A stretch of 64,000 nt of DNA from the NCBI GenBank assembly GCA_001770205.1, contig MEQL01000039.1, positions 322,787 to 386,786 on the forward strand, written 5' to 3'. The stretch's first letter is position 1. Each line of letters opens with the position of its first letter. Below the pieces are notes generated by a model, which was not told the origin of the DNA, ran no database searches, and saw nothing but the letters and a program-made list of their open reading frames with translations. The translations under genes and the position numbers were made by a program. The stretch comes from Bdellovibrionales bacterium RIFOXYD12_FULL_39_22. GTDB taxonomy: Bacteria; Bdellovibrionota; Bacteriovoracia; Bacteriovoracales; Bacteriovoracaceae. Shown piece after piece: positions 29,684 through 46,580 of the stretch.

Positions 29684-29772
29684 TGGCGGAGGACACAGGA
29701 TTCGAACCTGCGGTACCCGAAGGGTACAACGGTTTTCAAGACCGCCGCTTTCAACCACTCAGCCAATCCTCC
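29684..29772 (-). tRNA. tRNA-Ser(UGA), CCA encoded
   Basis: GGAGGATTGGCTGAGTGGTTGAAAGCGGCGGTC-TTGAAA-ACCGT, long variable arm GTACCCTTCGGGTAC, GGTTCGAATCC, ..GTCCTCCGCCA. Confidence 0.97.
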
Positions 29773-29819: not shown

Positions 29820-31109
29820 CTAATTTTTAGCAGGTGTTCCCTGAATAAATTCCATTCCACCCATAAATGGACGTAGAACCTCTGGAATCGTAATAGAACC
29901 ATCTGCATTTTGATAGTTCTCTAAAATAGCAACCAGTGTGCGCCCAACGGCCAAGCAAGAGCCGTTTAGGGTATGCGCAAACTCTGGCTTGCCCCCTTCG
30001 CCACGATAACGAATTTGTGCCCGACGTGCTTGAAAATCCCAACAATTAGAGATCGAGGAAATTTCTCGATACTTATTTTGGCCAGGGAGCCAGACCTCTA
30101 AATCGACGCATTTTCTTGCACTAAATCCAATGTCTCCGCTGCATAAAAGCACGGCCCGATAGGGGAGCTTTAGATCCTCCAAAACAGAGCAGGCCATATC
30201 AATCATTGCTTGATGGGCAATCGTAGAGTCTTCTGCCTTTGTTATTTGCACCATTTCGACTTTATTGAACTGATGAAGACGAATAAGGCCTTTGGTATCT
30301 TTGCCATAAGAGCCTGCTTCGCTCCTAAAACAAGGAGTATATGAGGCATATTTAAAAGGAAGTTCATTACCAGCAAAAAGTTCATTGCATTTTAAATTAG
30401 TAACCGGAACTTCCGCCGTTGGAATCAAATACCACGGCCGGCCTTCAAGACGAAAGAGATCATCTTCAAATTTGGGAAGCTGGCCAGTACCATAAAGAGT
30501 GTTGGCGTTGACAATATAGGGCGGAATGATTTCTTCATATCCAGCAGCGATTAGCTTTTCTAACATATAGTTAATAAGCGCTCGTTCAAGCTTGGCAAGA
30601 TGCTTTTTGTAAACTACAAAGCGCGACCCCGCAATCTCTGCCGCCTTTTCAAAGTCTAACATTTTTAAGTTTTGCCCAAGATCAACATGATCTTTGGGAG
30701 TAAAGGAAAATTGACGAGGCGTTCCCCATTTTCTAATCTCCTGATTATGTCCATCATCTTGGCCATTCGGAACTTCGTTATCAATTATATTAGGAATCAT
30801 AGAGAGTAATTTTTTCTGTTCCTCTAAAATCTCTTCCAATTTTTTTTCATCGTTTTCAACATTGGCCTTTATAGCGGCAACTTTGTTCATTAATTCTGTC
30901 GCATCTTGCTTGGCCTTTTTTAAATTGCCAATTTCCATCGATGTGCTTTTAATTTCTGCCCGATAAGACTCAACAATTCGAATAAGTTCTTTGCGGCGAT
31001 GATTTATTTTCAGCACTTCATCCACTTGCATTGCTAATTCTGGCCTTCTCCGCACCAGATTTTTTTTTGCTTCTTCGGTATGCTCTTCAAAATATCTTAT
31101 ATCATGCAT
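29820..31109 (-). CDS. serS: Serine--tRNA ligase
   Basis: LIPTAEVP, FRSEAGSYGKDTKGLIRLHQFNKVE, YREISSISNC, HTLNGS. Confidence 0.98.
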   Translation of the reverse strand: MHDIRYFEEHTEEAKKNLVRRRPELAMQVDEVLKINHRRKELIRIVESYRAEIKSTSMEIGNLKKAKQDATELMNKVAAIKANVENDEKKLEEILEEQKKLLSMIPNIIDNEVPNGQDDGHNQEIRKWGTPRQFSFTPKDHVDLGQNLKMLDFEKAAEIAGSRFVVYKKHLAKLERALINYMLEKLIAAGYEEIIPPYIVNANTLYGTGQLPKFEDDLFRLEGRPWYLIPTAEVPVTNLKCNELFAGNELPFKYASYTPCFRSEAGSYGKDTKGLIRLHQFNKVEMVQITKAEDSTIAHQAMIDMACSVLEDLKLPYRAVLLCSGDIGFSARKCVDLEVWLPGQNKYREISSISNCWDFQARRAQIRYRGEGGKPEFAHTLNGSCLAVGRTLVAILENYQNADGSITIPEVLRPFMGGMEFIQGTPAKN

Positions 31110-31123
31110 CTGTTTATCTCCTG

Positions 31124-34100
31124 TTATTTTAAGTTTTTAATTAAAAGTTCAATTTGCGGGCGATCTGGAGCTGAAGGAAAAAGTGTGAGGTAAACCTGAA
31201 AATAATTAATAGCAATTTCTCCTTGGCCAATATCCTTGTATACCATTCCCAGCTTACGGCTTAGTTCTGGATTCTCCTGGTTATGTTTGTGTGCTCGAAC
31301 ATAATACTCGCGGGCCTCATCTAGATAATTTTGTCCATATTTCATATCCCCCAACGCGATTAGCACTTCGGGAGAATTTCCATTTCTGGCCACTGCCTCT
31401 TCTAGTCTGCGCATGGCCATTGTATAGCGTTCTTCAACTGTGTCTGCTAGATATGCCATGGCCTTGACGTAGTATCCATGTTCCTTACTAGGATTTATTT
31501 TTATTTCCATATCTGCCATTTCATGTGCTTTTTTCACATCACCTTTTTGTAGAGCAATTTTGGCCAAATAATAATATATAAGCGGATATTCTGGTAATCG
31601 CTTTTTTACTTCGCTAAAGGCCAGTTCTGCATCCTCAGTTCTTCCCTGTGAAAAGCAAAATTCTCCTAATTCAAAACGCATTTCCAAATCACCTGGTGAT
31701 ATTTTCAATAGCATGTCGTAATATTTTATAGCTTCATCCGTTTTTTCTTCTAACTTTGTGGCATAAACCAAAAAGCGATAAAACTCTTCGTCTTTTTTGG
31801 GAAGATTTTCAAATTTCTTTTTATACTCCTCGAATTCATTCATTTGGCCGCTCTGATAGTAGTACTTGCCAATTTCTCCAATGAGCTTAGGGTTCTCGGG
31901 ATTACTTTCTAAAAGATTGCGCAGATAACCAATGGCAACTTCTGGCGCGTCATATTTTTCTTTGTCAAATAAGATGCGAGCATATAGTAAGTGGAAATCA
32001 ATATTTTGCGGATCTAACTCCAACGCATTTCCCAACATTATTTTTGCCATATCATATGCCCGCTGCTTCAAATAAATCCTGGCCAAGCTGTAATAATCTT
32101 GCTCATTCAAAGGATCTCGATAAAGTGCTTCACGATAATTTCTCACCGCGGCCACTATATTTCCAGTGGCCTCTTGATATTTGGCCGAAATTGAAACGTA
32201 ACGAGCAGTATTAAAGAACTTGCTTTCTCCGGCCTGATTTAAACTTTTTTGCGCATCATCATATTGATGAGCATCAATATAAGTATCAATGAGGGTATAG
32301 CGAACGTTGTCGGAGGCAGAATACTCGGAAAAAAGTTTTTGCAAGGTTTCAATTGACTCCACAAAGTATCCTCTTTTTGCCTGCAACTTGGCCATATGAA
32401 GTCTGGCGTCTATATCTTTGGGGCAAAGATCCACGGCCTCAATTGCCAACATCATTGCTTTTTCCCACTCCAGCATCTCCATCATCTCTTTGGATTTTCG
32501 CACTAAATCGCGGGCCTTGGTTTCCAAAAGAAATTCTTGCACTGCTTTGCTTCCACCAATATCAATTGCGGCCAGCTTAGAAATTAAATCATCGGAGGGA
32601 TTAATTTTGAGAGATTTTTGTAAATATTGAACAGCTCCTTCATTGTTTCCCTTCATGGCCATTAGAATGCCGGAATACTCCAGATAGCGACTATAGTAGT
32701 AGGGACTCCTCTCATAATTTATAATTTTGATTCCTGAAAGTAAGGTTTCTAATTTTTCTTTATTTCCTTCGCGCAAGATGTATTCAGCAAAATCCAGCCA
32801 CACTATGGCAAAATCCTTGTACTTTTTGCTGGCCTCAACTAAAAGAGCTCGGCCCTCTTCAAATTTTTCATCATAACGATAAAATTTTGCTAGTCCGAGA
32901 TATACTTCCAGAGGAACGGCATCAACTCCTGCGGCCTGACGGCCTTGATCTAATTTGGCAGCAATTTCTCTTGCCCGATCCAAACGGCCAAGTTCAAGAG
33001 CAATTAAAAGGTGATACGCTCCTTTTTTAAAAGTTGCTACCGTATTTTCATTGATTTTTTTTGCGTCTGCCAACTCTATTAACTTTTTAGCTATTTCATC
33101 TCTTTTCTGTGAAAGGGCCACTGCTTCTTTTTCATCTAGCCCTTCCTCTTTTAATTGTTGATCTATTGCTGCTAGCTGCGATTCTCCAATCAGTCCATCT
33201 TCTGCTTCTTTTTCTAAATCTCGAATTTTCTTTAAAACCCCTATTCTGTGCGTATCAAAATTCTCCATAATATTAAAAGCTGTTTGATATTTTTTCATGT
33301 GATAGAAAAAAATTGCAGAGCCCAAAGCAATGTCTCTATCAACTAATGCCTGGCCTTTAACTAATTTAATTATTTTATAAATTGTCGATGCTGCCACGTC
33401 GCGATCTTGTGCATCTCTAAACAGCTCTGCATAACAAAGAAGTAGCTTTCCGATGGCCTTGTAGTTGTTCTCGTTATTATATTGCCATGATGATTGAAAA
33501 TAGTTGATCGCCTCTAATTTATTATAGTATCTGCCCTTTTGGTATTCTACTACTCCCGATTGATATTGCTCTTCACTTTTTATCTTGTTTATTTCCAAAG
33601 CAACAGGATAAGAAACTTCGACATATTGTGGTTCTCCTTCCGTTTTGATCCCTGTATCTTCATCCGGAACTAAAAGCACAATAAATATTGCTAAAAAAGC
33701 AATTGCCGCAATTGGGCGAATACCTTTTTGCTTTTTCTTATCCCCCTTTGGGGCCCCCTCATTGCTTGGAGGAAGAAGTGCATTCAGCTCTTTTTTTTCT
33801 TGTTCTTCTTGTTGTTTTTTTTCTTCTTCAACTTCTTGCTCTGTTAATTCCACTTCTCGATGCAATTCGGGCAGTAGTTCTTTAACGTTGGCAACTTTTG
33901 TTTCTTCTCTGGTATTAATTTTTTCTTCTTCTGGCGTTTTCTCTGCCTCTTCTAAAATTTCAATCTTCGCGGGGCCATTTTTTTCCATTGTTTTAGCAAA
34001 AAATTCTTTAGGATTATAATTCAAATCTACAATTCTCGTCGCATCGGCTGTCTTTGTGGTGGCCAGTTTTTTGTTTATAATTACTGTCTTGTCGTCCGAA

Positions 34101-34564
34101 GAATTGGATGGATTTGATTTTGTGGATGAATTGCTTTCCTTTTCTCCAGAAGACTTCTTATAATTAAATTCATTAAATGGCCCTGTCTTATCACCACTTT
34201 TTATCTTCGTTTCCAAAACATTTTCCTCTGTCTCATCCTCCTCTTGCACAGATGGTTCATCGCGATAATGCGCCATTTTAGCGGTTAGCTCTTTGTGTGC
34301 GGCGGCAATTGATAAATTTATGACCGTTTCCGATTCTTTTACATCTTGTTGGCCAAGATTTATTTCTTGAGAAATTATTTTTACGATGAGCTTACTAAGC
34401 TCCGAAACTGTTTCAATTGGCTCCCATTTACCATCAGGAAAAACCTGACATTCTTCTGATCCATCTATGATTTTTTTAAAAAACATTTCGCCAATTTTTT
34501 CTATTGGAAAAGGGCCAACAATTCTTTCATTTTTTAATTTAACTCGATATTTTGTACTCATCAT
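31124..34564 (-). CDS. Large membrane-anchored TPR protein with N-terminal GYF_2-like domain
   Basis: N-term YRVK..IVGPF....IIDG....DGKWEPI; acidic disordered linker; KKKQKGIRP then TM IAAIAFLAIFIVLLV; many TPR-like helical repeats (ALELDPQN, ALYRDPLN). Confidence 0.8.
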   Translation of the reverse strand: MMSTKYRVKLKNERIVGPFPIEKIGEMFFKKIIDGSEECQVFPDGKWEPIETVSELSKLIVKIISQEINLGQQDVKESETVINLSIAAAHKELTAKMAHYRDEPSVQEEDETEENVLETKIKSGDKTGPFNEFNYKKSSGEKESNSSTKSNPSNSSDDKTVIINKKLATTKTADATRIVDLNYNPKEFFAKTMEKNGPAKIEILEEAEKTPEEEKINTREETKVANVKELLPELHREVELTEQEVEEEKKQQEEQEKKELNALLPPSNEGAPKGDKKKQKGIRPIAAIAFLAIFIVLLVPDEDTGIKTEGEPQYVEVSYPVALEINKIKSEEQYQSGVVEYQKGRYYNKLEAINYFQSSWQYNNENNYKAIGKLLLCYAELFRDAQDRDVAASTIYKIIKLVKGQALVDRDIALGSAIFFYHMKKYQTAFNIMENFDTHRIGVLKKIRDLEKEAEDGLIGESQLAAIDQQLKEEGLDEKEAVALSQKRDEIAKKLIELADAKKINENTVATFKKGAYHLLIALELGRLDRAREIAAKLDQGRQAAGVDAVPLEVYLGLAKFYRYDEKFEEGRALLVEASKKYKDFAIVWLDFAEYILREGNKEKLETLLSGIKIINYERSPYYYSRYLEYSGILMAMKGNNEGAVQYLQKSLKINPSDDLISKLAAIDIGGSKAVQEFLLETKARDLVRKSKEMMEMLEWEKAMMLAIEAVDLCPKDIDARLHMAKLQAKRGYFVESIETLQKLFSEYSASDNVRYTLIDTYIDAHQYDDAQKSLNQAGESKFFNTARYVSISAKYQEATGNIVAAVRNYREALYRDPLNEQDYYSLARIYLKQRAYDMAKIMLGNALELDPQNIDFHLLYARILFDKEKYDAPEVAIGYLRNLLESNPENPKLIGEIGKYYYQSGQMNEFEEYKKKFENLPKKDEEFYRFLVYATKLEEKTDEAIKYYDMLLKISPGDLEMRFELGEFCFSQGRTEDAELAFSEVKKRLPEYPLIYYYLAKIALQKGDVKKAHEMADMEIKINPSKEHGYYVKAMAYLADTVEERYTMAMRRLEEAVARNGNSPEVLIALGDMKYGQNYLDEAREYYVRAHKHNQENPELSRKLGMVYKDIGQGEIAINYFQVYLTLFPSAPDRPQIELLIKNLK

Positions 34565-34569
34565 CTATT

Positions 34570-35988
34570 CTACTTGATAAAAATTGATGGAAAAATACCC
34601 AAAACAATAAGCGCGATTATCAAGGCCATTTGCATAATAGTGGAAGAGATGGTCACGCGGCCAATCTCTGTTTCATTACTAGAGGCCAATAGCAAATCCA
34701 TCTCCTGGGGATAAACATTAACTTCTGCAATAAATCGCAACAGCGCCACAACACCTAAAACAGATGAAATAATAAAAACAAAAGAAACCAGGAGATGGCC
34801 GTCGCTAATTAGGCCAGAAAATAATAATGCTCTGGAAACGATAACTCCGGAAAGAGGAGCCCCAGTTAAGATTAAAATCGCAAAAATAAATTTCCACTTA
34901 CCAAAATTACTAGCTACAAAATATCTTTTGACTCCACTAAATGTTATTTTTTCCTTTTGATCTTGTGCCCACAGTTCTAATATTACGCTAAACGCCAAAG
35001 ACAACGATAGCATCGTAATTACCAAATGATACATTAGACTACGAATATTTCCATGCTTGTCACTCAATAATATTACTGCCGCCAACAAACTGATTTGAGC
35101 GATCCCGTTGTATGATAAAGATTTTCGCAGTTCTCTTTGCGCAAGTGACATAATATTTCCATAAATGTTACTAGTTACAAATATAACTGCCATTGCCAAC
35201 AAGATAGAGGAATGGAAGGCCGGCGAACTCTTGGCCAGAATTGTCTGCATTGTAACAGTAAAAACGTATATGACTGGTGCTAAAAAAGTAAAAAAATAGG
35301 AAATAATTTGTCCTCGCGAAATACCTTGGTGAATGGCCAACACCCAAAAATTCAATGGGGCCAAGCCGATTTTAAAAATCATTGTTGTTAACAACAATAC
35401 AATGGAAATGCGATATGCCATTTCATTTCCAACAACAATGTTTTCTAGGCCCATCCTTCCGGTTGCCATATAGAAAATTCCTACTCCAATAAAAAAAATA
35501 GTCGAAACTATGGTGTTACTTAAACCTGATTTAATACTAATCTCAATGGCTTCTTTACGATTAGAAAATTGTGGGAGCACCGACATAATATATGAAAGTG
35601 CTTCAATAAAAACAAAAAAGGCAATTAAATTGCTTGTACCCAAAATAAAAATGGAAAAAATTAGCATAAAGCTTGATAGAATCGAACTACCTAGATCAAA
35701 ATATTTCTGAATTCCATTTATGACTACAGTAAGAATGTTCAGTAAACATAAAAGCATAGCAAAACGGACTTCAATCTTGGAAAGAGTCAAATATTTATAT
35801 AATACAATTTCTTTAGAAGAAAAAAATAAATTACCTAGAAGCATTGCCGTTGAAAAAATCAATAGCAGGCCAGAAGCTCTACGCCAGTTTTTACCACCAA
35901 AGGAAACTATTGCGGCAAAACAGGTGACAACAATAAATATCACTATTGTCGTATCGATTTTTAAAATATCATATGCATCAAATTTCAT
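34570..35988 (-). CDS. NuoN-like antiporter-type membrane subunit (divergent)
   Basis: NLIAFFVFIEALS, IEISIK, FKIGLAPLNFW, GNIMSLAQRELRKSLSYNGIAQ, LTGAPLSG. Confidence 0.75.
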   Translation of the reverse strand: MKFDAYDILKIDTTIVIFIVVTCFAAIVSFGGKNWRRASGLLLIFSTAMLLGNLFFSSKEIVLYKYLTLSKIEVRFAMLLCLLNILTVVINGIQKYFDLGSSILSSFMLIFSIFILGTSNLIAFFVFIEALSYIMSVLPQFSNRKEAIEISIKSGLSNTIVSTIFFIGVGIFYMATGRMGLENIVVGNEMAYRISIVLLLTTMIFKIGLAPLNFWVLAIHQGISRGQIISYFFTFLAPVIYVFTVTMQTILAKSSPAFHSSILLAMAVIFVTSNIYGNIMSLAQRELRKSLSYNGIAQISLLAAVILLSDKHGNIRSLMYHLVITMLSLSLAFSVILELWAQDQKEKITFSGVKRYFVASNFGKWKFIFAILILTGAPLSGVIVSRALLFSGLISDGHLLVSFVFIISSVLGVVALLRFIAEVNVYPQEMDLLLASSNETEIGRVTISSTIMQMALIIALIVLGIFPSIFIK

Positions 35989-35992
35989 AAAC

Positions 35993-37399
35993 TCACATCA
36001 CCAGATCTGCGCGAAAAAACGCAATTATATTTTCCGGCAATATCCCCATAAAAAAAATAATGGCCAACAATAAAATAAGCGGCATAAGCTTTCTCCATTG
36101 CAAATGTGCGGGAGCAGGCCACGCTACTTTTGCAGAAGTGAGTGTTGCGACAGCCCCCTTTATGAATATGTAATGGCCGTAAAGTAAAAGTAAAAGCGAG
36201 GCCAAAAGAAAAGCTAGGCCATTTTCTAGCATTGTTGATAGAAAAAAATATTCACTCCCAACAACTGCTGAAAATGGAAACATGATCATAAAAACATATA
36301 AAGCAATAACCAATCCTGCGGGAAAAAAGAAAAACTCTGAAGCGCGATGATATGTTAGTGCACCAAAAAAAGTATTTAACATAGAAATAATAAATAGAAT
36401 ATAAAAGGCCCCTTCATGTGCCCTGTTTGAGGGCGAAAGAATCATCAGGACAATAACAATTCTCGCAAGACGTAAAAAGAAATTGCCAGTGTTACTCTTA
36501 TAATCACTGGTCAGCAGACCTATCGCTGAAGAAAGGATAATTCCGCCTATTATCCATGGCATATAGGCTGTCATCCCCGCATAAAAATAGGTAAAGAAAT
36601 ATTTATATAATCCAAATATAAAAAGCGTGTCATATATAACCACCAGAGAAATATTTAATAGAGAGCTAATTTTTTTATCTGTCTTATTACTCCAATGCTT
36701 CAGTGGAAAAATTCCCATTTTCATCAAATATGCCAATAAAAGCATTGCTCCAACCAAAAGACGTTCTTTTGCGAATTGCTCATCTCCTAGAAATCGTCTG
36801 ACCATTTCATCACTTAATTCAATCACTCCGAAACTAATTTTACCCACAACTAATAATATAACCATTGAGGCCAAAACCAATGCTGATGATATGGATGCAT
36901 ACACCAAAATTTCTTTTACACTTTCCTTATTTCCTAACGTGGATATTAAAAGAAGATATGTGTAAACAACTAATTCTGAAACTAGATAATATTGAAAAAT
37001 ATTTGTACTGCTCAGTGCCAAGGTACTTAGTCCCAAAATAACCATCTGCATAAACATAATCGATCTGCTGTCATATATTTCCTCTCTATGCCAGGTGAGC
37101 AATAATATAATAGTGACAAAATAATTTAGCAGCACAATTAACGAAGATAATTTTGTAATTCCAAAAACAAACAAATAGTGGCCAGCAACCACCGCAGTAT
37201 CAACTGACGTAGTAGAGAAATCAGAAGGCCATCCCTCGTTATACCAAAGAAGACGCACAAGATAGGCAAAAACAGAGAACATACCTAAAAAGCTATAAAC
37301 CCTTACCAGTTTTTTATCTTTAATCTCTAGTAAATATCCTGCCGCCCATAGCATAGGGAGAAAAAGTATTATGGTTTGGCCCCAATAAAAATCCAACAT
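35993..37399 (-). CDS. NuoM-like antiporter-type membrane subunit (divergent)
   Basis: FGITKLS, YYLVSELV, LMKMGIFPLKHW, FPFSAVVGSEY, GILP; position between NuoL- and NuoN-like genes. Confidence 0.65.
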   Translation of the reverse strand: MLDFYWGQTIILFLPMLWAAGYLLEIKDKKLVRVYSFLGMFSVFAYLVRLLWYNEGWPSDFSTTSVDTAVVAGHYLFVFGITKLSSLIVLLNYFVTIILLLTWHREEIYDSRSIMFMQMVILGLSTLALSSTNIFQYYLVSELVVYTYLLLISTLGNKESVKEILVYASISSALVLASMVILLVVGKISFGVIELSDEMVRRFLGDEQFAKERLLVGAMLLLAYLMKMGIFPLKHWSNKTDKKISSLLNISLVVIYDTLFIFGLYKYFFTYFYAGMTAYMPWIIGGIILSSAIGLLTSDYKSNTGNFFLRLARIVIVLMILSPSNRAHEGAFYILFIISMLNTFFGALTYHRASEFFFFPAGLVIALYVFMIMFPFSAVVGSEYFFLSTMLENGLAFLLASLLLLLYGHYIFIKGAVATLTSAKVAWPAPAHLQWRKLMPLILLLAIIFFMGILPENIIAFFRADLVM

Positions 37400-39220
37400 C
37401 TACCTTCCTCCCAAAAGCGCGACAAGTAATAATACCAAAATGATCATTAAAACCAACGTAATGTTTTGTAGTAGATCACTCCGTCGACGTGACAGCAAAA
37501 ATATCCGCAGCATTCTCCAACCATCTGCCAGTAGGACTTGCGGCATTTCCAGCATTTTCTTTAACAAGACGAGGGGCCACACACAAAACTCAATTGCCGC
37601 CTTCGTGCTATAGGAAGTAAAAAGGCCAAGTTCATTACTCCGTCTCATTTTAAAGCTATGTGACAAAAGTAATTGTTCGAATTTTATCGCAATAGAAGAT
37701 CCTTCCTTTAGTTTCTTATGGTATAAAAAGGCAGCAAACGCGGCCAGAAGGGCCACCAAAGAGATGCTGGTTATTGGGATTAATGTTCTCGTGGCAGAAC
37801 TTTCCTCTTGGTTTATGATAAGAAAGTTTGCAACGACACTGTTTTCAGATAGAGAATGATACGTTATAAAAATTTGTGCAATAGACAAAACAAAGTATAG
37901 TGCGGTTAATATCTGTTCTTCTAGCGAAAATGGCCAATTTGTAGATTTAAGTTGCGGATTAAAAGATCGGCCAATCAACAACTCTCCCAAAAATCGCCCC
38001 ACGATAGCAAATGAAAAGATAAACCAGGAAAATCCAAGTATGATAATGTTACCTTGGCCCAGGCCATCATTTTTTAAAATGGCAGTTATCAATGTTGATA
38101 ATTCATGTGAAAATGTAAACGGGAAAATTCCAATAATTGTTGCAATCACATAAAAGACAAGGAATGTTTTAATATCCAACTTTGCCAACAATCGATTGTT
38201 ACTAGCGTAATGAGTATAGGCCAAAAACATCGTAATCAAAAGGCCCGATGCAAATATCTGCGGAGAAAGAGTTGGCAAAACATTAATTGCGGCAACGAAT
38301 GCAAGTAATGAAAAAACACCGGCAATGCGAACAAATACTGCAAAATAACTACTTAACAGAGAAAGACTAATAACACCTAGTAAGAGGTAGCATCCCAAAA
38401 TCATTGTAATTAACGGAGAATGGTTTTGAAACAAGTCAAAAAGGGGAGATAGTCTATAAAATATAATGGCCAAGGGAAAAGAAACAAAACTAATCTCTTG
38501 ATACAACGACATGAGCGGATGATCACCCAACTCCTCTCGATCAGGATAAAACAGTTGATTGCGTAGGCGCAAAATAATTACCATAAACAGAAAAAAATAT
38601 GCCATGGCCAACTTTTTAGAAACAATTGTTTCCGCACTGACTAGGTCATTAAGTTGATAAAAGCTCTCTATCTGAAATTCTGATTGAATCAAAATCCACA
38701 TAGCGGCAACAGCGAGATATTGACTCGTTCTAAGCACAATGTTGCCAACTGTAATTTCTGCAAAAGAAGCCTCAAAGAGGGCCATTAGATCTAAAGCAAT
38801 TAGTGACATCATTAATGTGATACCATTTCCTGACATGGCAACAAACGCCAATATCGTCATCTGTAAAATTAAAGTCATGCCAAATTTTGAACTATTTGTT
38901 GGCCTTGTTGCCTGATATATTTTTATTAAAAGAAAAATAGATAACTGTGCTCCCAATGTAAAAATAGTAAAGCGATCAACTTGAAACATTATGGAACTTG
39001 CTCCAACTCCGATAATCAAATATTTCCACCAAACAATAACTGTCCCAATGGCCGCTTCCGCAATGCTTTTGTTCATTATGAGAAGCAGCACACCCCACAA
39101 AAACCCCGCAATTATTGAAACATATTTAGTGTAGCGTCCATCAAAGAACAGCTTGTCATACAAGCAGAAAAAAACTGCTGAAAACGAAATACCGAAAAAT
39201 AAAAAGAGTAGCACTCCCAC
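37400..39220 (-). CDS. NuoL-like antiporter-type membrane subunit (strongly divergent)
   Basis: 606 aa polytopic; FQVDRFT (cf. D.LS), IFYRLSPLF (cf. RLSPLF), GIFPFT, C-terminal amphipathic helix plus last TM. Confidence 0.6.
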   Translation of the reverse strand: MGVLLFLFFGISFSAVFFCLYDKLFFDGRYTKYVSIIAGFLWGVLLLIMNKSIAEAAIGTVIVWWKYLIIGVGASSIMFQVDRFTIFTLGAQLSIFLLIKIYQATRPTNSSKFGMTLILQMTILAFVAMSGNGITLMMSLIALDLMALFEASFAEITVGNIVLRTSQYLAVAAMWILIQSEFQIESFYQLNDLVSAETIVSKKLAMAYFFLFMVIILRLRNQLFYPDREELGDHPLMSLYQEISFVSFPLAIIFYRLSPLFDLFQNHSPLITMILGCYLLLGVISLSLLSSYFAVFVRIAGVFSLLAFVAAINVLPTLSPQIFASGLLITMFLAYTHYASNNRLLAKLDIKTFLVFYVIATIIGIFPFTFSHELSTLITAILKNDGLGQGNIIILGFSWFIFSFAIVGRFLGELLIGRSFNPQLKSTNWPFSLEEQILTALYFVLSIAQIFITYHSLSENSVVANFLIINQEESSATRTLIPITSISLVALLAAFAAFLYHKKLKEGSSIAIKFEQLLLSHSFKMRRSNELGLFTSYSTKAAIEFCVWPLVLLKKMLEMPQVLLADGWRMLRIFLLSRRRSDLLQNITLVLMIILVLLLVALLGGR

Positions 39221-39510
39221 TATTCATCCCTTTCAAAAATATCTGTCTTTAACGACTTCTTTTCTTCATGTAAAAAAACAAACTGGCCCAACAGTAAAAT
39301 TAACATCAAAATAATAGGAACCATCGAATAGAGGCCAAAAACTACGCCTTCCGGGCCATGATTAGCAATAGAAAGAAAATACATTAAGAAAAATGAACCG
39401 TTCCAAAAAAATAAAATAGCAAGCAGTTGATCTACTGCTCCTCTTCTCATGGCCATCCGGATAATGCCAGAACAGATTATTAGTACGGTGATTAGCAAAT
39501 ATAAGTTCAC
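39220..39510 (-). CDS. NuoK-like small membrane subunit (divergent)
   Basis: 96 aa, 3 TM, MRR after TM1, EGVVFGL (cf. GQVFAL); position in operon. Confidence 0.6.
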   Translation of the reverse strand: MNLYLLITVLIICSGIIRMAMRRGAVDQLLAILFFWNGSFFLMYFLSIANHGPEGVVFGLYSMVPIILMLILLLGQFVFLHEEKKSLKTDIFERDE

Positions 39511-40019
39511 ACCGACTCATCCTTCTGTTTTTTTATTAATCCTAGCGTAAAAACAGTTATAAAAATTAATATAAAAATCGCAAAATATATCATACGGTGT
39601 TCCACAAAAATTGGATTTAAAACTTCAATAGAAGTTCCTACTACCTCTTGGCCAACTATTTTTTTTCCATCTTCAAAGAAAACAGCGTTTTCCTTTAGAA
39701 AAATTATAACTATCCCCAAAAGGGAAGAAAAAACAATTAAGAAAATTACAAACAGTGAGCGCTGGCACTCATCCATAAAATTTTTTCTAATTGGATCGGA
39801 GACCTTGTTTTGCACCAAAATAGCAAGAAGTGCTACAATTGTTGTTGCCACGGGAACAAAAATAACGGGGGTCGACCAAAAAACTTCCCCTACAACGAAA
39901 GTAAGCGTCATTGAGGTGAAAATCAAAGCACTAGCAGATACAACAATATTTTTGCTCCATAAAAATATCATCCCCGAAAGGAGCATAACTACGGCCACTA
40001 ATATTTCCCAGATTACCAC
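39507..40019 (-). CDS. NuoJ-like membrane subunit (divergent)
   Basis: 170 aa, about 5 TM, SKNIVVSASAL (cf. NPVHSAL); position between NuoH- and NuoK-like genes. Confidence 0.55.
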   Translation of the reverse strand: MVIWEILVAVVMLLSGMIFLWSKNIVVSASALIFTSMTLTFVVGEVFWSTPVIFVPVATTIVALLAILVQNKVSDPIRKNFMDECQRSLFVIFLIVFSSLLGIVIIFLKENAVFFEDGKKIVGQEVVGTSIEVLNPIFVEHRMIYFAIFILIFITVFTLGLIKKQKDESV

Positions 40020-41083
40020 TTAAAATACCCCTGTTTTATAAAAATGACGGTAGTAATTAGATTTAACAAACCAATAATAAAAAACCTATTCCAAGAAATA
40101 CTCATTAGAAAAAAGTTTGAATGTTTGGGTATAATTACCTTGGCAAAATTTATAATAAATAAAACTGCCGAAGTTTTTAACAAAAAGATAGAAACTTGAA
40201 TAATCGGGATATAGTGCTGTGAAGAAACAATGCCAATTTTATCCAAGTGGCCAGTGTAAAAAATTGGGCCATATCCTCCAAGAAAAATAGCTGTTATCAG
40301 CATGGCCCCAATAACTATATGTACGTTATTAAAAAAACGTAAAACAAGAATAAAAAAAAGATCTCGGCCCTTATCTATACCACCGATCCATTCCTTCTCC
40401 AGCTCTATCACACTATATGCGCTAGAATGATCCTTTGATAATACGACAAAAATCACTGATAAAAAGGCAATTGGTTGTATCAAACAGCCGATGGCCGGCA
40501 ATCCACCAATTGTATACTCATTTTGCAGTTGTATGATTTTGTGAAGATCAAAGGTGCCAAAGGCCAAAAAAACAGAAAGCAACGACACCAACAGTGGTAA
40601 CTCCGTCGTCAGTAGCTGTTTATATATGCGATATGATGAAAGCTTTGCTACATTATCTCGCTGGCCAATAGACAAAACAAGATAATATAGGGGATGCATG
40701 GCCATAAGTACTATGAAGAGAAGAAGGCCATCTTTCGAATATAGAACTTCTCCATAATTTAGTTGGCCCCAAAAAGAGAAAGGGGCCATGACTGGTAAAA
40801 CAACAACAGGAGCAATGATAACCACCGTTAGAAAATACAGCAAAAAAAGGTCATTAAAAAAATTATCTGCCGTCGATTTATTAAACATTTTTAAAATATT
40901 TCGTATTCCCGTATTAATTATTTTTCCAGCATTAAACCTATCTGTACGCAAGTTTGTAAGCTTACCAACAACCAACTCCCCCCAAAAAGCATTAAATGCA
41001 ACCAGTCCGGCCAGCAGTACAAGCAAAAATACAATTTTAAAGAATATAATCATTTCGAACATTAAACGCTCACTAATGGTCAT
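40013..41083 (-). CDS. NuoH-like membrane subunit (divergent)
   Basis: GLLLFIVL, KLSSYR..KQLLTTELPL (cf. LGA.R..AQ.ISYE), IIQLQ, LIQPIAF, IFLGGYGP, LLKT, IPK....MSISW; likely start 41083. Confidence 0.7.
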   Translation of the reverse strand: MTISERLMFEMIIFFKIVFLLVLLAGLVAFNAFWGELVVGKLTNLRTDRFNAGKIINTGIRNILKMFNKSTADNFFNDLFLLYFLTVVIIAPVVVLPVMAPFSFWGQLNYGEVLYSKDGLLLFIVLMAMHPLYYLVLSIGQRDNVAKLSSYRIYKQLLTTELPLLVSLLSVFLAFGTFDLHKIIQLQNEYTIGGLPAIGCLIQPIAFLSVIFVVLSKDHSSAYSVIELEKEWIGGIDKGRDLFFILVLRFFNNVHIVIGAMLITAIFLGGYGPIFYTGHLDKIGIVSSQHYIPIIQVSIFLLKTSAVLFIINFAKVIIPKHSNFFLMSISWNRFFIIGLLNLITTVIFIKQGYFKW

Positions 41084-41441
41084 TAAAAATTTTAAATCTT
41101 TGGAAAAAGCGCACACCGCCCAGTAAAAGATACGCCAAAAATAAAATACCAACAGAAAAAAGAACGATCTCAAATCCCGCCCCGTCTTTTTTGTTTAAGA
41201 AAAAAACCAAAGATGGGATTAAAAAAAGTAACGCAATAATAAAAACCGCTAAAATGACAAATTCAATTTCTCTACCTATAGAGTAGTTATTGGACAAAGA
41301 ACGCATCTTACTCTGCATTATCTCCTGGCCACTTGTTCTTGAAAAATTTTTGACATGACTACTGTTAACAAAACGCAACAACCCATAAATGGCCAAATCC
41401 AAAAAAAATAGGAAAATTAAAAAAGTAACTAATGACGACAA
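41073..41441 (-). CDS. NuoA-like small membrane subunit (divergent)
   Basis: 122 aa, 3 TM with long TM1-2 loop, LLFLIP, LAYLLLGG (cf. Y.W.KG); lacks ECG and FDVE motifs. Confidence 0.5.
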   Translation of the reverse strand: MSSLVTFLIFLFFLDLAIYGLLRFVNSSHVKNFSRTSGQEIMQSKMRSLSNNYSIGREIEFVILAVFIIALLFLIPSLVFFLNKKDGAGFEIVLFSVGILFLAYLLLGGVRFFQRFKIFNDH

Positions 41442-41464
41442 CGCCCGACTCCCTTCGTTTGCGA

Positions 41465-42844
41465 TTAAATTCCTAAAAAGTGCACATCCATTAAATCATG
41501 GTTTATTGAAATTGCTAAGACAAAACCGATGAAAAAATAGATGGCCATGATTATATTTTGCATCCTGCTTGCGGTTATGGCCGAATCTTCTTTTTCGCTT
41601 ATTAAAAGTGAGGAAATTAGTTCACTATCCCCCTTAATAATATCTCGTAAGAATTGTCGCTTACTTATTATAAAAATAATTAATGCAAAAAAAACAATTC
41701 CCCGTTGCCAAGAAAAAACCAGGGCACCTCTTTGACGAAATTGGATTAACAATATTTCAAAAAAAACCAGTATCGCAAGATAAGACACCATCATCCCAAC
41801 CACTTCATACCGGAAACGCTTAAACATGCCAACTAGTCGCTCGCGATGATCATTGTTAAACACAGAAACGACTCTGAGCTGAATTGCCTTGGCCGTCACT
41901 GCCACCAGAGCAACTCCTAGGGAAGAAATGGCCAAATACTTCCCTTGAGAAATAAAATTAATTATCAACAAACCACCAACCAAAAACATGTTGTCAAAAT
42001 TGCCAAGACGAACCAATGATCGCTCCCAAAGCGACAATACACCACCCATTACAATCGAAATAATTAACAAGTTAACTATGGAAAGTTCTATTCCCATGTA
42101 CGGTAGGGCCAAATCTAATGTTTTAAAGTTCAACAAAATTCTTAAATAAAAAGTAAAAATAGAAATTTTTATAAGAATATCCTCAAATGGCCATTTCTTA
42201 GAATCATTATTTGTATTTTCCATATTAATAAACGGAAAAATATAGATATGACGGCCAAACAGTAATACCAGGGCCAGCATTGTTGGTTTTATGAAAGAAA
42301 AACTATTCTCCTTTGCCTGAATTACCTGCGTCAAATTGCCACCATCCAATAAAAAGATAAGGGTAATGCTGGCCATCATGGTTAAAAAAATTTTAATTTT
42401 TTCCCCGCGGTGCCATGAAAAAAATTTATCTTCAAATGAAAATAGTGAATCCAAAAGAAAAAACAACTCCAAAAAAACGATCATCCAAAGATTGTTGGCC
42501 GATATTGTAAAAAACGAAATTAACAAAAAAATTTGTTTTCTTGCCGTCCACTTTTCTATTTGTGCAACAGAAAATATAGCAAAAAAAATGATCAGCAAAA
42601 ATTTCATAGCATGGCCGACGCGATCTATGACAAAAAATGATTCAGATAGCGAAATGGCCGGATAGTTAAGTAATAGTCGCTGGCCTAAAACAAGTGCAAT
42701 TATGGCAATTGCAAAGTAATTGATAAAAGCTGCTATCTTGCTTCCTTTGTTTTTCCTGGTGAAAAAAAAAGTAAGTAAAATAGAGGACAACAGAACAATT
42801 TCTGGTAACAAATTATCGAGAATAAAAAACGTCTGCATCAGCAT
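41465..42844 (-). CDS. Second NuoN/antiporter-like membrane protein (very divergent)
   Basis: LLPEIVLL, FVIDRVG, SANNLWMIVFLELF resemble the NuoN N-terminal half; about 13 TM. Confidence 0.5.
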   Translation of the reverse strand: MLMQTFFILDNLLPEIVLLSSILLTFFFTRKNKGSKIAAFINYFAIAIIALVLGQRLLLNYPAISLSESFFVIDRVGHAMKFLLIIFFAIFSVAQIEKWTARKQIFLLISFFTISANNLWMIVFLELFFLLDSLFSFEDKFFSWHRGEKIKIFLTMMASITLIFLLDGGNLTQVIQAKENSFSFIKPTMLALVLLFGRHIYIFPFINMENTNNDSKKWPFEDILIKISIFTFYLRILLNFKTLDLALPYMGIELSIVNLLIISIVMGGVLSLWERSLVRLGNFDNMFLVGGLLIINFISQGKYLAISSLGVALVAVTAKAIQLRVVSVFNNDHRERLVGMFKRFRYEVVGMMVSYLAILVFFEILLIQFRQRGALVFSWQRGIVFFALIIFIISKRQFLRDIIKGDSELISSLLISEKEDSAITASRMQNIIMAIYFFIGFVLAISINHDLMDVHFLGI

Positions 42845-42993
42845 AATGTATATATTATTAATGCCGCTACGGCCAAAGAGGGTAGTAATGATTCTTTTCC
42901 GTCACCTGAAGAAGTTGCAATTCTTCCGAACAGATTAAGAAGCAAAAAAGGGGCAATAAATATTCTCTCCAGCGGCAATAGATACTTTTTCAT
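42838..42993 (-). CDS. Small 51-aa membrane protein heading the Nuo-like operon (below ORF-track cutoff)
   Basis: MKKYLLPLERIFIAPFLLLNLFGRIATSSGDGKESLLPSLAVAALIIYTLC; TGA overlaps next in-frame ATG (TGATG). Confidence 0.45.
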   Translation of the reverse strand: MKKYLLPLERIFIAPFLLLNLFGRIATSSGDGKESLLPSLAVAALIIYTLC

Positions 42994-43088
42994 ATTATCT
43001 TTCGTTTAATCTTGTATTTAGAATAACCTAGGCCTATCGTTATGGAAATATATATTGCGCTTTGTTTTTTTCTCGAGGATTACCATAT

Positions 43089-46000
43089 ATGCATGGCCTT
43101 AATCTGGTGGCCGAAAAAATTTTGAATTGGCACAAATCCTCTAACGTGCCCATGAAAATTTCTGGAATGGGGCCATCTGAATGGCACTTTTTTTATACCA
43201 ACTTTTTATTGAAAAGAAAAAAAGAAGAAATACCATCGCATCATTTAATTGTTTGCCCAACAGCAGATGTTTTAGAAGATGTCTATAGCAATTTAAAAAA
43301 AGCAATCCCCGATATTTTGATTTTTCCTGGCCATGAAATAAATCCCTTTTCAGAGGTTTTTTCATCTTCCCGAAATCTTTTTCAACGCTTTTTTGCCTTG
43401 GCAAAAATTTTACAAGGGCCAAATCCCATAATCCTTCTATGCACTCCAGAAGGACTTGTTTTGAAAAATCCACCACTTTCTTTTTTTTCAGAAAATAGTT
43501 TATTGATTTCTACTTCTGATATTATCTCCCCTGTCGATTTGGCGGCGCGACTGATAAGAATTGGATATTTTTCGTCAACTACTGTTGAAGAGCCGGGAAC
43601 TTTCTCTAGAAAGGGCGAAATTTTTGATATTTTTCCTACGCTCGGTGGGCCTGTTCGTTTGCATTATTTTGATGAAATGATTGAAGATATTTTCTTAATT
43701 GACCAACAAACCAACAAATCAATTCGAGAGAAAAAACTTAAAGATATTTTTATTCCCCCGGCACCTGGAATTTTCACTAATGATCCGTTCCGTTCACAGC
43801 TTCGCGAAAACTTGCCGATGCCTTCTCCTTTGTTTAAGCGACGACATGAGGCACGAAAAGAGTTGTTACAGTCTTTGGCAAATGGCCGTCTTTTTGACAA
43901 TTATCCACTTTTTGTCTCTTCCTTTTTTGCTGAACATTCTACTCTTTTAGATTTTTTTACCACCCCAAATGGTTTGATAACTTTTATCTCCGCAGATGAA
44001 TCTGTTCGTTCACAGACAGAAGAGTTTGAACTAATTCGTGCAGACTATGCGCGCCGTCTTGCCGATTCTGAAGATGAAATGGTTACCCCTTCTCCCGAGA
44101 AAATATATGACCTAGATAGATTTGCTAAAATTGATTCAATAAAGGCATTGCAGGTAAACAGTGTTGCGATGGATGCTCTTACTTGCGATCTTGATAATAG
44201 CATCGCTGTGCAAATGGAGTCGGCCCGCATTTTCTTAAACAACCATGTCAATCCAGCGCAAGACAAGTTTGAATATTTTAATCAACTTTTTGATTTTTTT
44301 AAAACCCACTTCCAATATAACGGAAATATAATTTTTCTATATGAAAACATCAACGCCAAAGAAGAAATTGCCTTTTTAATTGATGGCCACGCTTTTTCTT
44401 CGGAACTGCTGTCACGAATTTCATATCAACAGTTTTCTCTTGATCAGGGTTTTTACTATTTTGCAGAAAAGTTATTAGTTCTAACTTCTGCAGATCTTTT
44501 TTCAAAAAAGCGCAACAAGGCCAAGGCCACAAGACAAATTAATATTGATCTTTTCGCCGAACAAATGGCATCCCTCGTTCCTGGCGATTATGTAATCCAC
44601 AGCACACATGGACTTGGCCAGTATTTAGGTCTGGAGGCAATGCAGGTTGGAAGCAGTACCTCAGATTTTTTAGTTTTACTTTATGATGAAAACGATAAGA
44701 TCTATGTTCCTGTTTATAAGATTAACCTGATCCAAAAAAGTGCACCAGCTACTGCCGGCCTAAAATTAAATAACCTTCGCTCAAAAAAGTTTCAACAAAT
44801 TAAAGAACGAGCAAAAAACGCGGCCAAAGAACTGGCCTTTGATCTTTTAAAATTACAGGCCGAACGAAAGTCATCACCGGCGTTTGCCTTTTCCCCTCCG
44901 GACCACCATTTTAAAGAGTTCGAATTGGCCTTTCCTTTCAATGAGACAAAGGATCAAGTTTCTGCCATTAACAATGTTCTTGACGCCATGCAGGCACCAA
45001 CACCGATGGATCACTTGGTTTGTGGCGATGTAGGTTTTGGTAAAACAGAAGTAGCAATGCGTGCGGCCTTTAAGGCCGTGCTTGATGGAAAACAGGTGGC
45101 CATTTTAGTTCCTACCACTATTTTAGCGCTACAGCACTATAACTCTTTTGTAGAACGTTTCGCCAACTTCCCAGTTAAAATAGATTTTCTTTCTCGCTTC
45201 AAGTCCGCCCCGCAGGCAAAAAAATTGAAAGAGGATTTGGCCGAAGGGAAAGTAGATATTGTCATTGGTACTCACATGTTGCTTGCTGATTCTATGAAAT
45301 TTAAAAGTCTAGGACTTGTTGTCGTTGATGAAGAGCAGCGATTTGGGGTAGGCCATAAAGAAAAACTAAAATTAATGAAAGCAACTTTGGATTTTTTAAC
45401 GCTAACGGCAACTCCGATTCCTAGAACTTTGCAGTTGGCATTTTTGGGACTACGCGATCTCTCCTTAATCCAGACAGCACCTCCAAAGCGACAATCAATA
45501 AAAACTTATTTGATAAAAGAGGACTTCAACACTATCAAGCATGCACTTGAACAAGAACTGGCCCGCGGCGGCCAAGTATTTTATGTACATAATCGCGTCA
45601 ACGATATTGAGATGGTACGAGAAGAAATTATAAAAATGGTTCCAACTGCCAAAATCGTGGTGGCGCATGGCCAACTTCCTGAGCGACAATTAGAAGAAAA
45701 AATTTCTGCTTTTTACTCTGGGAAATATCATATTTTACTATCCACAACTATCATTGAATCTGGAATCGATATTCCAAATGCTAACACCATGATAATTAAC
45801 CGCGCGGATACCTTCGGCCTGGCCCAACTCCATCAGTTACGTGGCCGCATCGGCCGCTCTGACCGCAAGGCCTACGCCTATTTTGTTATTCCCAAAGAGA
45901 AAAAACTAACCACAATTGCGGAACAAAGATTAAAAGCATTACAAACTTACGCCGATATGGGATCTGGATTTTCAATTGCTTCTTCTGATTTGGAAATTCG

Positions 46001-46580
46001 TGGGGCCGGCGACATCTTAGGAGCGTCACAGTCTGGCCATATTGAAGAAGTGGGCCTAGAGCTTTATATGGAGCTTTTAAAAGAGGCCATCGCCGAGCTG
46101 AAGGGAGAGCAAAGACGAGTTTCCCGCGATTTGGAAATATCAACTCCTTTCCCGGCCTATATTCCGCACTCATACATCACAGATTCAGCAGAGCGGTTGC
46201 GCATTTATAAAAAATTATCTAACTGCACCGATCTAAGCGTCCTATATCAAATTATTGACGATATTTCTGATATTTTTGGAAGTTTTCCAGAAGAGATTAA
46301 AAACTTGTTCACAATTATTGAGGCAAAAATTATTCTCGGCCCCTGCGCTTTAAAATCCATTGCGGTGGCCGGATCTACTTTGACCTTTAAGTTTGACCGC
46401 GAGGCCATTGACAAGGATACTGCTCTTCGTGATCGAATTGTTAAGCTTTTTACCTCTCGACCAAAAGTTTACAAAATTAATCCCGACTATAGCGTTATAT
46501 ATGGCCACCGAGAAGTTATCTCTCAAGAAGTTTTATTAAAAATCTCAAAAGATGTTGCGGAGCAACTGGTAAAATGTTAA
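43089..46580 (+). CDS. mfd: Transcription-repair coupling factor
   Basis: GEIFDIFP, VIHSTHGLG (RID), CGDVGFGKTEVA, DEEQRFG, TATPIPRTL, QLRGRIGR, DLEIRGAG; probable ATG 43089. Confidence 0.97.
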   Translation: MHGLNLVAEKILNWHKSSNVPMKISGMGPSEWHFFYTNFLLKRKKEEIPSHHLIVCPTADVLEDVYSNLKKAIPDILIFPGHEINPFSEVFSSSRNLFQRFFALAKILQGPNPIILLCTPEGLVLKNPPLSFFSENSLLISTSDIISPVDLAARLIRIGYFSSTTVEEPGTFSRKGEIFDIFPTLGGPVRLHYFDEMIEDIFLIDQQTNKSIREKKLKDIFIPPAPGIFTNDPFRSQLRENLPMPSPLFKRRHEARKELLQSLANGRLFDNYPLFVSSFFAEHSTLLDFFTTPNGLITFISADESVRSQTEEFELIRADYARRLADSEDEMVTPSPEKIYDLDRFAKIDSIKALQVNSVAMDALTCDLDNSIAVQMESARIFLNNHVNPAQDKFEYFNQLFDFFKTHFQYNGNIIFLYENINAKEEIAFLIDGHAFSSELLSRISYQQFSLDQGFYYFAEKLLVLTSADLFSKKRNKAKATRQINIDLFAEQMASLVPGDYVIHSTHGLGQYLGLEAMQVGSSTSDFLVLLYDENDKIYVPVYKINLIQKSAPATAGLKLNNLRSKKFQQIKERAKNAAKELAFDLLKLQAERKSSPAFAFSPPDHHFKEFELAFPFNETKDQVSAINNVLDAMQAPTPMDHLVCGDVGFGKTEVAMRAAFKAVLDGKQVAILVPTTILALQHYNSFVERFANFPVKIDFLSRFKSAPQAKKLKEDLAEGKVDIVIGTHMLLADSMKFKSLGLVVVDEEQRFGVGHKEKLKLMKATLDFLTLTATPIPRTLQLAFLGLRDLSLIQTAPPKRQSIKTYLIKEDFNTIKHALEQELARGGQVFYVHNRVNDIEMVREEIIKMVPTAKIVVAHGQLPERQLEEKISAFYSGKYHILLSTTIIESGIDIPNANTMIINRADTFGLAQLHQLRGRIGRSDRKAYAYFVIPKEKKLTTIAEQRLKALQTYADMGSGFSIASSDLEIRGAGDILGASQSGHIEEVGLELYMELLKEAIAELKGEQRRVSRDLEISTPFPAYIPHSYITDSAERLRIYKKLSNCTDLSVLYQIIDDISDIFGSFPEEIKNLFTIIEAKIILGPCALKSIAVAGSTLTFKFDREAIDKDTALRDRIVKLFTSRPKVYKINPDYSVIYGHREVISQEVLLKISKDVAEQLVKC

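Follow-up and report, generated by a model that had tools for sequence, protein, structure and literature searches.

What becomes of a complex I when only its membrane subunits are encoded together and much of their catalytic chemistry appears lost? The question is raised by a 64,000-nucleotide (nt) stretch of the genome of Bdellovibrionales bacterium RIFOXYD12_FULL_39_22 (assembly GCA_001770205.1, contig MEQL01000039.1, positions 322,787 to 386,786; hereafter the window), in which a run of membrane open reading frames (ORFs) in nuo order leads into a gene for a tetratricopeptide repeat (TPR) protein between positions 31,124 and 42,993. A first reading of the letters alone (the sequence-only reading) had seen there a membrane-arm-only machine, catalytically eroded and repurposed for the TPR partner. 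By gene content and synteny, we assign the operon as the membrane half (A, H, J, K, L, M, N) of a second, split complex I of this predatory bacterium, the predicted other half of which lies on contig C45 of the same assembly. Taken as a whole, the locus is probably one part of a split, derived complex I paralogue that is held by selection and shifted in function, rather than one in neutral decay. Canonical respiration is covered by complete nuo operons on contigs C10 and C12.

The first evidence comes from the same chromosomal site in relatives. With the H-like protein as query, a word-indexed search over 5.8 billion proteins returned only the query and two weak NuoH matches, with no orthologues, so searches by synteny were used instead. 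Against 40 relatives, the same query found nothing above 21–29% identity, and several genomes held two NuoH genes 7–10 kb apart. In the relative G018, mfd is followed by two consecutive A H J K L M N septets, called modules 1 and 2 below, and then by TPR and serS; all 14 subunits are canonical in Pfam (NuoH 5.9e-113 and 2.5e-105). In each of G018, G019 and G036 the only two NuoH genes of the genome are found here, and NuoD is encoded at other loci: a B-C-D-I cluster pairs with module 1, and a lipoprotein-B-CD-E-F-G-I cluster with module 2. A nuoAHJKLMN cluster with this split layout and at this site is described for all Bdellovibrionota studied in a 2026 paper (PMC13147790). Since the split layout is normal at this site in Bacteriovoracaceae, the absence of B, C, D and I from the operon is the ordinary arrangement.

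The window operon takes its place in a continuum. Over 81 genomes, the Pfam score of the NuoH beside the TPR gene descends through 2.7e-105, 4e-40, 1e-35, 2e-30, 5e-27 and 2e-22 (the window) to 3e-15, 1e-8 and 2.5e-4. In G003, G085, G077 and G055 NuoH is undetectable, yet seven tightly packed ORFs of decreasing size stand in the right order. Diverged seven-ORF modules occupy the site in these four genomes and in G063, G071, G009, G088, G013, G091, G024, G096, G015 and G092. In a survey of 26 of 30 named loci (L058, L066, L078 and L081 were omitted, having about 460–1,970 bases upstream or a partial match), module 2 is canonical in eight, a diverged seven-ORF module in four and a remnant of four to five small ORFs in five; in the other nine it is deleted, and module 1 abuts the TPR gene. 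The remnants, all in metagenome-assembled genomes (L063, L073, L079, L080, L083), consist of ORFs of about 96, 257–271, 146, 84–104 and 210–236 residues; a K-like ORF is recognizable in three of them, and equivalents of L, M and N are mostly gone. Module 1 has disappeared from the site in the present genome, as in G071, G024 and L060, leaving here a degenerate NuoN-type gene that we call Nx.

Trees of H and N, built without the unalignable diverged sequences of G003, G085, G077 and G055, group the window N with module-2 N (SH-like approximate likelihood-ratio test, SH-aLRT, 98) and put the window H on the module-2 side (99), on terminal branches of 1.6–2.0 against 0.2–0.6 in canonical rows. 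The operon is, by position and phylogeny, the predicted fast-evolving form of module 2. Acquisition from a foreign source was considered as well, and is ruled out by synteny and the trees.

How far can the membrane ORFs still be recognized one by one? Assignment by hidden Markov models (HMMs) holds for four subunits only: H, K, M and the last N. Pfam identifies the NuoH-like protein as NADHdh (8.9e-22), the NuoK-like one as Oxidored_q2 (1.6e-6) and the last N as Proton_antipo_M (6.7e-20), and NCBIfam the NuoM-like one as NDH_I_M (7.3e-10). HMMs built from nine canonical relatives score N at 1.3e-35, H at 2.7e-20, M at 2e-11 and K at 5e-5; they give weak best matches to the expected family for A (0.012) and J (0.026), and none for the L-like gene or Nx. 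In the PDB, the NuoH-like protein finds NdhA (6hum_A, 6.3e-9) and the last N finds Thermus thermophilus Nqo14 (4he8_N, 5.9e-15); the NuoM-like protein has no match there at E 0.01. With jackhmmer, the NuoK-like protein converges on canonical NuoK, and A, J and Nx return only themselves.

The L-like gene is placed by position and architecture. Neither HMMs, nor hhalign against canonical L, M and N profiles, nor jackhmmer over 882 ORFs of related loci ties it to a family. Its layout is that of canonical NuoL, with transmembrane (TM) segments up to about residue 504, some 75 non-TM residues and a last TM segment at 580–606, and its language-model neighbours in the ESM Atlas carry PF00361 (0.95 and 0.94). 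A single-sequence AlphaFold2 model (predicted local distance difference test, pLDDT, 41; predicted template-modelling score, pTM, 0.22) was unusable, and no fold search was made from it. Nx, which has no Pfam match, aligns with the nine canonical NuoN by hhalign (probability 88%, E 2.9e-6, 331 columns) and sits where N of module 1 (N1) sits in relatives; it is probably the remnant of that gene. An origin as a module-2 duplicate was also weighed: E 0.018 against an N1-only profile, with no match to an N2-only profile, favours N1 weakly.

The hydrophilic half is found elsewhere in the genome, a 62-contig assembly that is 94.6% complete (G000 among the relatives). The sequence-only reading was right that nuoBCDI and nuoEFG are missing from the window; the genome, which it had proposed to search, carries them on C45, C10 and C12. 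On C45, a third hydrophilic-arm cluster runs from a gene for a 609-residue predicted lipoprotein through nuoB, nuoCD and a nuoG-like gene to nuoI (NuoB 1.6e-21; fused NuoCD, D domain 9e-71 and C domain 2e-9; the NuoG likeness lies in an N-terminal part). In relatives, too, the peripheral clusters are anchored by this lipoprotein gene at their upstream end. NuoE and NuoF are not encoded in the cluster; in this genome they were seen only on C12, no genome-wide family search having been made. A manual reading of the alignments finds all 24 ligands of the iron–sulfur (Fe–S) clusters in place: four of four cysteines in NuoB and eight of eight in NuoI, which with CD make up the Q-module, and twelve of twelve ligands, for three clusters, in NuoG, the one N-module subunit present. 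The sequence-only reading had also named what would reduce its case to an ordinary split operon, namely nuoBCDI elsewhere at matching divergence together with conserved key residues. The first is what C45 supplies; the residues, as shown below, are not conserved. The notion of a membrane-arm-only machine is contradicted by this cluster and by the ordinary split layout of the relatives.

The two complete operons have the orders A B C D H I J K L M N (11 genes, C10:437-11100) and A B CD E F G H I J K L M N (C12:86651-100360). Their proteins are 30–54% identical to those of family modules 1 and 2 in the best segments, less than orthologues from different genera, which suggests acquisition or an old paralogy. 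A hydrogenase-like locus related to complex I, separate from the window operon, lies on C13 (C13:12365-18470).

Both halves of the derived complex travel together through the family. A CD-fused NuoD of the second complex occurs in most family genomes, with scores continuous from 1e-109 to 1e-32. We inspected 24 derived peripheral clusters, that of the present genome included. Where neighbours are detectable, the arrangement is lipoprotein-B-CD-I without E, F and G, except that G011 keeps diverged E, F and G and the present genome keeps G; no lipoprotein gene was detected in four genomes and no B in G089 and G066, and in G001 only CD was found. In the CD tree the 24 derived rows form one clade (SH-aLRT 95) beside canonical G018 and G019 (96). 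The C45 protein falls inside it, with a terminal branch of 1.39 against 0.13–0.18 in canonical rows, and the clade spans at least 20 genera. All 15 genomes checked that have a derived membrane module have a derived CD cluster as well (in G015 and G092, CD was found only with the C45 protein as query), and both are absent from G020, G017, G078, G062, G007 and G049.

The lipoprotein gene (C45:358-2187, L047) has homologues ahead of nuoB in 21 other genomes, in canonical and derived peripheral clusters alike. These proteins of about 480–610 residues have a signal peptide, a lipobox-like cysteine and several invariant cysteines; they have no Pfam match.

What has been lost, then, is chemistry. C45 NuoCD has leucine at the histidine of the GPxHPxxHG loop and cysteine at the tyrosine of the RLxY motif, positions that we take to be the quinone head-group ligands (H38 and Y87 of T. 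thermophilus Nqo4), and so lacks these residues of the quinone site. The histidine is gone from 24 of 24 derived genomes, and the tyrosine survives in five of the 24. The Fe–S ligands fare differently: NuoI keeps eight of eight cysteines in 22 of 23 derived genomes, NuoB four of four in 14 of 21.

In the membrane arm, hmmalign and PDB phmmer alignments, made independently of each other, locate further losses. Of 54 columns at which nine canonical sequences share an invariant polar residue, NuoH keeps about 18 (a manual count from the alignment table); its N-terminal ER...RxGP...GP loop is gone, and so is its PFD motif. NuoA lacks the YECG loop and has I and A for the D and E of FDVE; NuoJ lacks the YAGA stretch, in a weak alignment; NuoK has leucine at both TM glutamate positions. 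NuoM keeps E142 and K227 and has T258 for the TM8 lysine, and its E383 probably matches the TM12 glutamate if, in a manual reading, P375 is aligned with the conserved proline. In the last N, aligned with 4he8_N, E129 (E112) and K206 (K186) are kept, A237 stands at K216 and R386 at K345. With these losses in K, A, M and N, the Glu/Lys proton path of complex I is no longer complete in the window proteins; the L-like protein is too diverged to be aligned at these positions. The by-eye comparison of the sequence-only reading had anticipated the motif losses in NuoA, NuoH, NuoJ and NuoK, and also that NuoM and NuoN retain the TM5 glutamate and TM7 lysine, NuoM its TM12 glutamate too, and lack the TM8 lysine; the alignments bear out nearly all of its calls. 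Judging from the family genomes sampled, the derived lineage has lost NuoE and NuoF and usually NuoG, the NuoD histidine and mostly the tyrosine, and, along the membrane arm, a large share of the chain of carboxylates and lysines.

The genes are nonetheless under constraint. The nine membrane ORFs of the operon contain no in-frame stop in 2,820 codons, where about 186 are expected from shuffled sequence, and the two other frames of the operon strand contain 398 stops. All seven membrane ORFs are likewise intact in each diverged locus examined. We estimated ratios of non-synonymous to synonymous substitution rates (dN/dS) by the Nei–Gojobori method, with a custom script, for congeneric pairs from genera other than that of the window. 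Between G009 and G088, the derived lipoprotein, B, CD and I genes have dN/dS of 0.039–0.058 at dS of about 1, and the derived membrane genes dN of 0.04–0.36 against 0.004–0.03 in module 1. The lipoprotein, at 0.039, is itself strongly constrained. Derived A to N of G024 and G096 have dN/dS of 0.06–0.20 at dS of 0.6–2.0. Between G003 and G085, module 1 is 91–99% identical (dN/dS 0.006–0.066), and the derived module 33–66% (dN 0.24–0.68), with dS saturated. The derived complex is thus estimated to outpace the housekeeping module in evolutionary rate by a factor of several to some tens, yet not to evolve neutrally.

Frames are intact here and neither frameshifts nor dN/dS near 1, which the sequence-only reading had set as signs of neutral decay, were seen in the relatives; selection for an altered role therefore explains the data better. 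The window operon itself has none of the stops or frameshifts of a pseudogene; the dN/dS values come from relatives. A true pseudogene in the family looks different: a NuoH-like stretch at G044:C3:2377-3267 has eight in-frame stops. The earlier proposal that intact frames with lost chemistry point to selection beyond respiration thus holds, and extends to both arms, given the loss of the NuoD ligands.

Several points weigh against this reading. Which residues are lost varies by genus, the N2 ligands are lost in seven of 21 derived genomes, L, M and N shrink, a four- to five-ORF remnant is left in five loci and the module is deleted in nine of 26, a pattern closer to progressive loss than to a stable new function. 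Diverged modules of different genera barely recognize each other, and L, A and J are not tied to their families by sequence. Derived A, H and J of G013 and G091 are only 21–32% identical, with dN/dS of 0.455 for A and saturated dS for H and J, and no dN/dS value comes from the window's own lineage. Long-branch attraction, flagged by the tree program, may help to unite the derived CD clade, and the identity of the NuoD histidine and tyrosine as quinone ligands is taken from the numbering of T. thermophilus Nqo4.

These points lead to the best-surviving alternative, a slowly decaying relic, which we rate as unlikely though not lightly dismissed. It holds that function was lost early, once Nqr or a complete nuo operon took over. 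Frames would have stayed open through the polar effect of stops on TPR and serS and through the harm done by truncated membrane proteins, leaving missense drift, in-frame shrinkage and clean deletion as the only tolerated changes. The heterogeneous loss of invariant residues between genera fits, as does a stepwise series from seven canonical genes through seven diverged and then shrunken ones to four or five small ORFs and none; spacings of 5 nt between N and TPR and 14 nt between TPR and serS are consistent with co-transcription. Among five genomes checked, NqrA was found in G071, G075 and G003, all with a derived module, and not in G018 or the present genome, the latter having two complete nuo operons. 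(G071, G075 and G024 have no canonical NuoH or NuoD and so possess the derived complex only; G024 also has a hydrogenase-like locus.) Frame maintenance alone, however, leaves dN/dS of 0.04–0.2 in two congeneric pairs unexplained. Nor does polarity account for the unlinked B, CD and I genes: in G063 and G071 the gene after nuoI lies on the opposite strand, with no co-directional gene downstream to protect, and yet all three are intact. Retention of every Fe–S ligand here and of the NuoI ligands in 22 of 23 derived genomes, the persistence of the derived state as one clade over at least 20 genera, and the different appearance of the G044 pseudogene also speak against it.

Could the complex instead still reduce quinone and pump ions, its erosion being an artefact of alignment at 20–25% identity or masked by substitute residues? 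The retained TM5 glutamate and TM7 lysine of M and N, with probably the TM12 glutamate in M and an arginine at TM12 in N, would suit a working variant, as would the intact Fe–S chain. We regard it as improbable all the same. The NuoD loop and the tyrosine motif stand in well-aligned blocks and are changed in all derived genomes, the losses of both NuoK glutamates, the NuoA D/E pair and the NuoH loop come from independent alignments, and the C45 cluster encodes no E or F.

That the membrane arm alone would act as a scaffold, sensor or energiser for a GYF-TM-TPR protein, as the 5-nt spacing and the conserved placement of the TPR gene beside the last nuoN, in this family and that of G036, might suggest, is hardly credible given that the C45 genes B-CD-G-I exist and are retained or lost with the membrane module, that canonical modules show the same adjacency, and that the TPR gene persists without module 2 and evolves slowly.

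The TPR protein itself consists of a conserved N-terminal domain, one TM segment and a long TPR region, with TPR_19 at 1.1e-36 and at least 20 further TPR-type matches in Pfam. The GYF domain once read into it scores only E 0.17 (GYF_2), below the cut-off. Its first ~50 residues are strongly conserved in the family, with many invariant alignment columns, and in the middle of the protein a low-complexity linker rich in E and K precedes the TM segment. The gene occurs in 78 of 81 family genomes, follows whichever nuo module comes last, canonical ones included, and stands after module 1 wherever module 2 is deleted; its place beside the last nuoN is conserved both here and in G036, which belongs to a different family of the phylum. 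Between G024 and G096 it is slow (dN/dS 0.056) while the module upstream diverges fast. A partnership with the membrane arm is unsupported because the gene is near-universal, follows any last module, survives the loss of module 2 and shows no co-variation in rate. We regard it as a conserved, putatively co-transcribed neighbour and not as a demonstrated subunit.

Returning to the split, derived complex held by selection, how might it work? The eleven or twelve proteins would still assemble into a complex I-shaped particle, here with a complete Fe–S wire (N1b, N4, N5, N6a, N6b, N2). This particle would have lost the reduction of quinone at the canonical site, and with it the coupling of reduction to proton pumping by way of the E-channel. 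Most likely it would serve as an auxiliary, loosely constrained redox complex: an electron donor other than an NADH module of its own, either ferredoxin-type or NuoE/F borrowed from C12, would deliver electrons to an acceptor bound differently from the canonical quinone, with little or no pumping. As a tentative possibility, well short of an even chance, the whole complex of 11 to 12 subunits would be a 'pseudo-enzyme' assembly in a large clade of predatory Bacteriovoracaceae, kept by selection for a new role in at least 20 genera after the NADH module, the quinone ligands and the carboxylates for proton coupling had gone. On that joint reading, the role may lie in non-canonical redox chemistry where B meets CD, or in the membrane, as a structural element or in the handling of ions, and the sequence would be free to change at about ten times the rate of the housekeeping complex.

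The features of the locus are collected in Table 1.

Table 1. Genes of the window operon and its flanks (window positions).
Feature	Position	Strand	Remarks
tRNA-Ser(tga)	29684-29772	minus	ARAGORN
serS (seryl-tRNA synthetase)	29820-31109	minus	14 nt past TPR gene
TPR protein, 1146 residues	31124-34564	minus	
NuoN-like (last N), 472 residues	34570-35988	minus	
NuoM-like, 468 residues	35993-37399	minus	
NuoL-like, 606 residues	37400-39220	minus	named by position and architecture only
NuoK-like, 96 residues	39220-39510	minus	
NuoJ-like, 170 residues	39507-40019	minus	named by position and size
NuoH-like, 386 residues from the longest start	40013-41173	minus	database form from 41116, 367 residues
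NuoA-like, 122 residues, ~3 TM segments	41073-41441	minus	named by position and size
Nx, degenerate NuoN-type antiporter-like, 459 residues	41465-42844	minus	
Hydrophobic ORF of 51 residues, doubtful status	42838-42993	minus	overlaps next gene by 7 nt (ORF list)
mfd (transcription-repair coupling factor)	43062-46580	plus	divergent; syntenic anchor of the locus

All nine co-oriented ORFs, the TPR gene, serS and tRNA-Ser are present as first described, and the packing is as tight: 23 nt separate Nx from A, J and K overlap by 4 nt and K and L by 1 nt, L and M abut (0 nt), and 4 nt lie between M and N and 5 nt between N and the TPR gene. The 51-residue ORF has no Pfam or NCBIfam match, and relatives have no consistent counterpart. 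The flanking serS is 61% identical to that of G018, which has tRNA-synt_2b and Seryl_tRNA_N domains, and mfd is 52% identical to the G018 gene, which has TRCF, CarD_TRCF_RID and helicase domains. Operon GC content is 0.35 against about 0.39 around it, with a strong AT skew; from 34000 to 44000, GC drops to about 0.35 and plus-strand AT skew climbs to +0.2. This shift is consistent with the T-rich codons of membrane proteins encoded on the minus strand. Between 29500 and 43300, a promoter scan gave 38 promoter-like sites against 46.7 expected and is uninformative, and a terminator scan lists no terminator-like site at the N/TPR or TPR/serS junction. DNA identical to 34570-41441 occurs in groundwater and soil metagenome contigs from several studies, eight of ten rows of which may be the assembly's own source and thus not independent evidence; no RNA data set was listed as carrying the same stretch. 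Metagenome contigs from four runs, compared with 31124-42993, gave identical pieces or short unrelated matches, with no variant listed.

Complex I is among the most conserved energy-converting machines. To our knowledge, the variants described so far differ in the electron-input module, and both the quinone site and the membrane arm's charged chain are preserved in them. A search of the literature in full text, supplements excluded, found no clade-wide, fast-evolving complex I paralogue without quinone ligands or coupling carboxylates that nonetheless remains under selection. In the Bacteriovoracaceae, every stage in the loss of these hallmarks is on view while both halves stay intact, co-retained and under purifying selection. 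If the particle is assembled, the family amounts to a natural experiment that separates the parts of complex I needed for folding and assembly from those needed for catalysis, and it may reveal a new activity. If it is not, the family would provide a remarkably clear bacterial example of genes decaying over long periods with their frames preserved. Annotators of Bdellovibrionota genomes should not mistake an 'arm-only' nuo operon for a stand-alone machine.

How does this complex compare with known systems? The split nuo genes of Bdellovibrionota (PMC13147790) have the same gene order, at the same site, with peripheral genes elsewhere; the window operon differs in being a strongly diverged second module, with module 1 missing and catalytic residues eroded. 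To the canonical complex I of T. thermophilus (4HE8/4HEA) it is related by homologous subunits and by the pattern of Fe–S ligands in B, G and I, and its L-like protein has the lateral-helix and C-terminal TM layout of canonical NuoL. Unlike canonical complex I, it has no E or F encoded with its cluster, its NuoD His/Tyr pair, two NuoK glutamates, NuoA D/E and TM8 lysines of M and N are replaced, and its genes occupy two separate loci.

Antiporter-like subunits of the Proton_antipo_M type are shared with Mrp antiporters, membrane-bound hydrogenases (MBH) and MBS. Like MBS, the present complex may be a relative of complex I with a terminal reaction other than the reduction of quinone. An Mrp system would comprise MrpA to MrpG without NuoH, NuoA, NuoJ or a hydrophilic arm; the present complex, with a NuoH homologue, putative NuoA and NuoJ homologues and a NuoB-CD-I arm, is not one. 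Unlike MBH, it has no hydrogenase-type large subunit, the hydrogenase-like locus of this genome being the separate one on C13.

A further comparison is with 11-subunit complex I-like enzymes without an N-module (PMC3144371, PMC11238625); that of Dehalococcoides belongs to an organism without quinones and has reportedly escaped detection as a complex (PMC6005880). Like the 11-subunit enzymes, the complex described here combines a core of A, B, C/D, H, I, J, K, L, M and N with the lack of its own NuoE and NuoF, and most of its derived relatives are without G as well. Unlike them, it arose secondarily from a 14-subunit-type ancestor within one family, keeps NuoG, has lost the NuoD ligands of the acceptor site and the E-channel carboxylates, and evolves at strongly accelerated rates.

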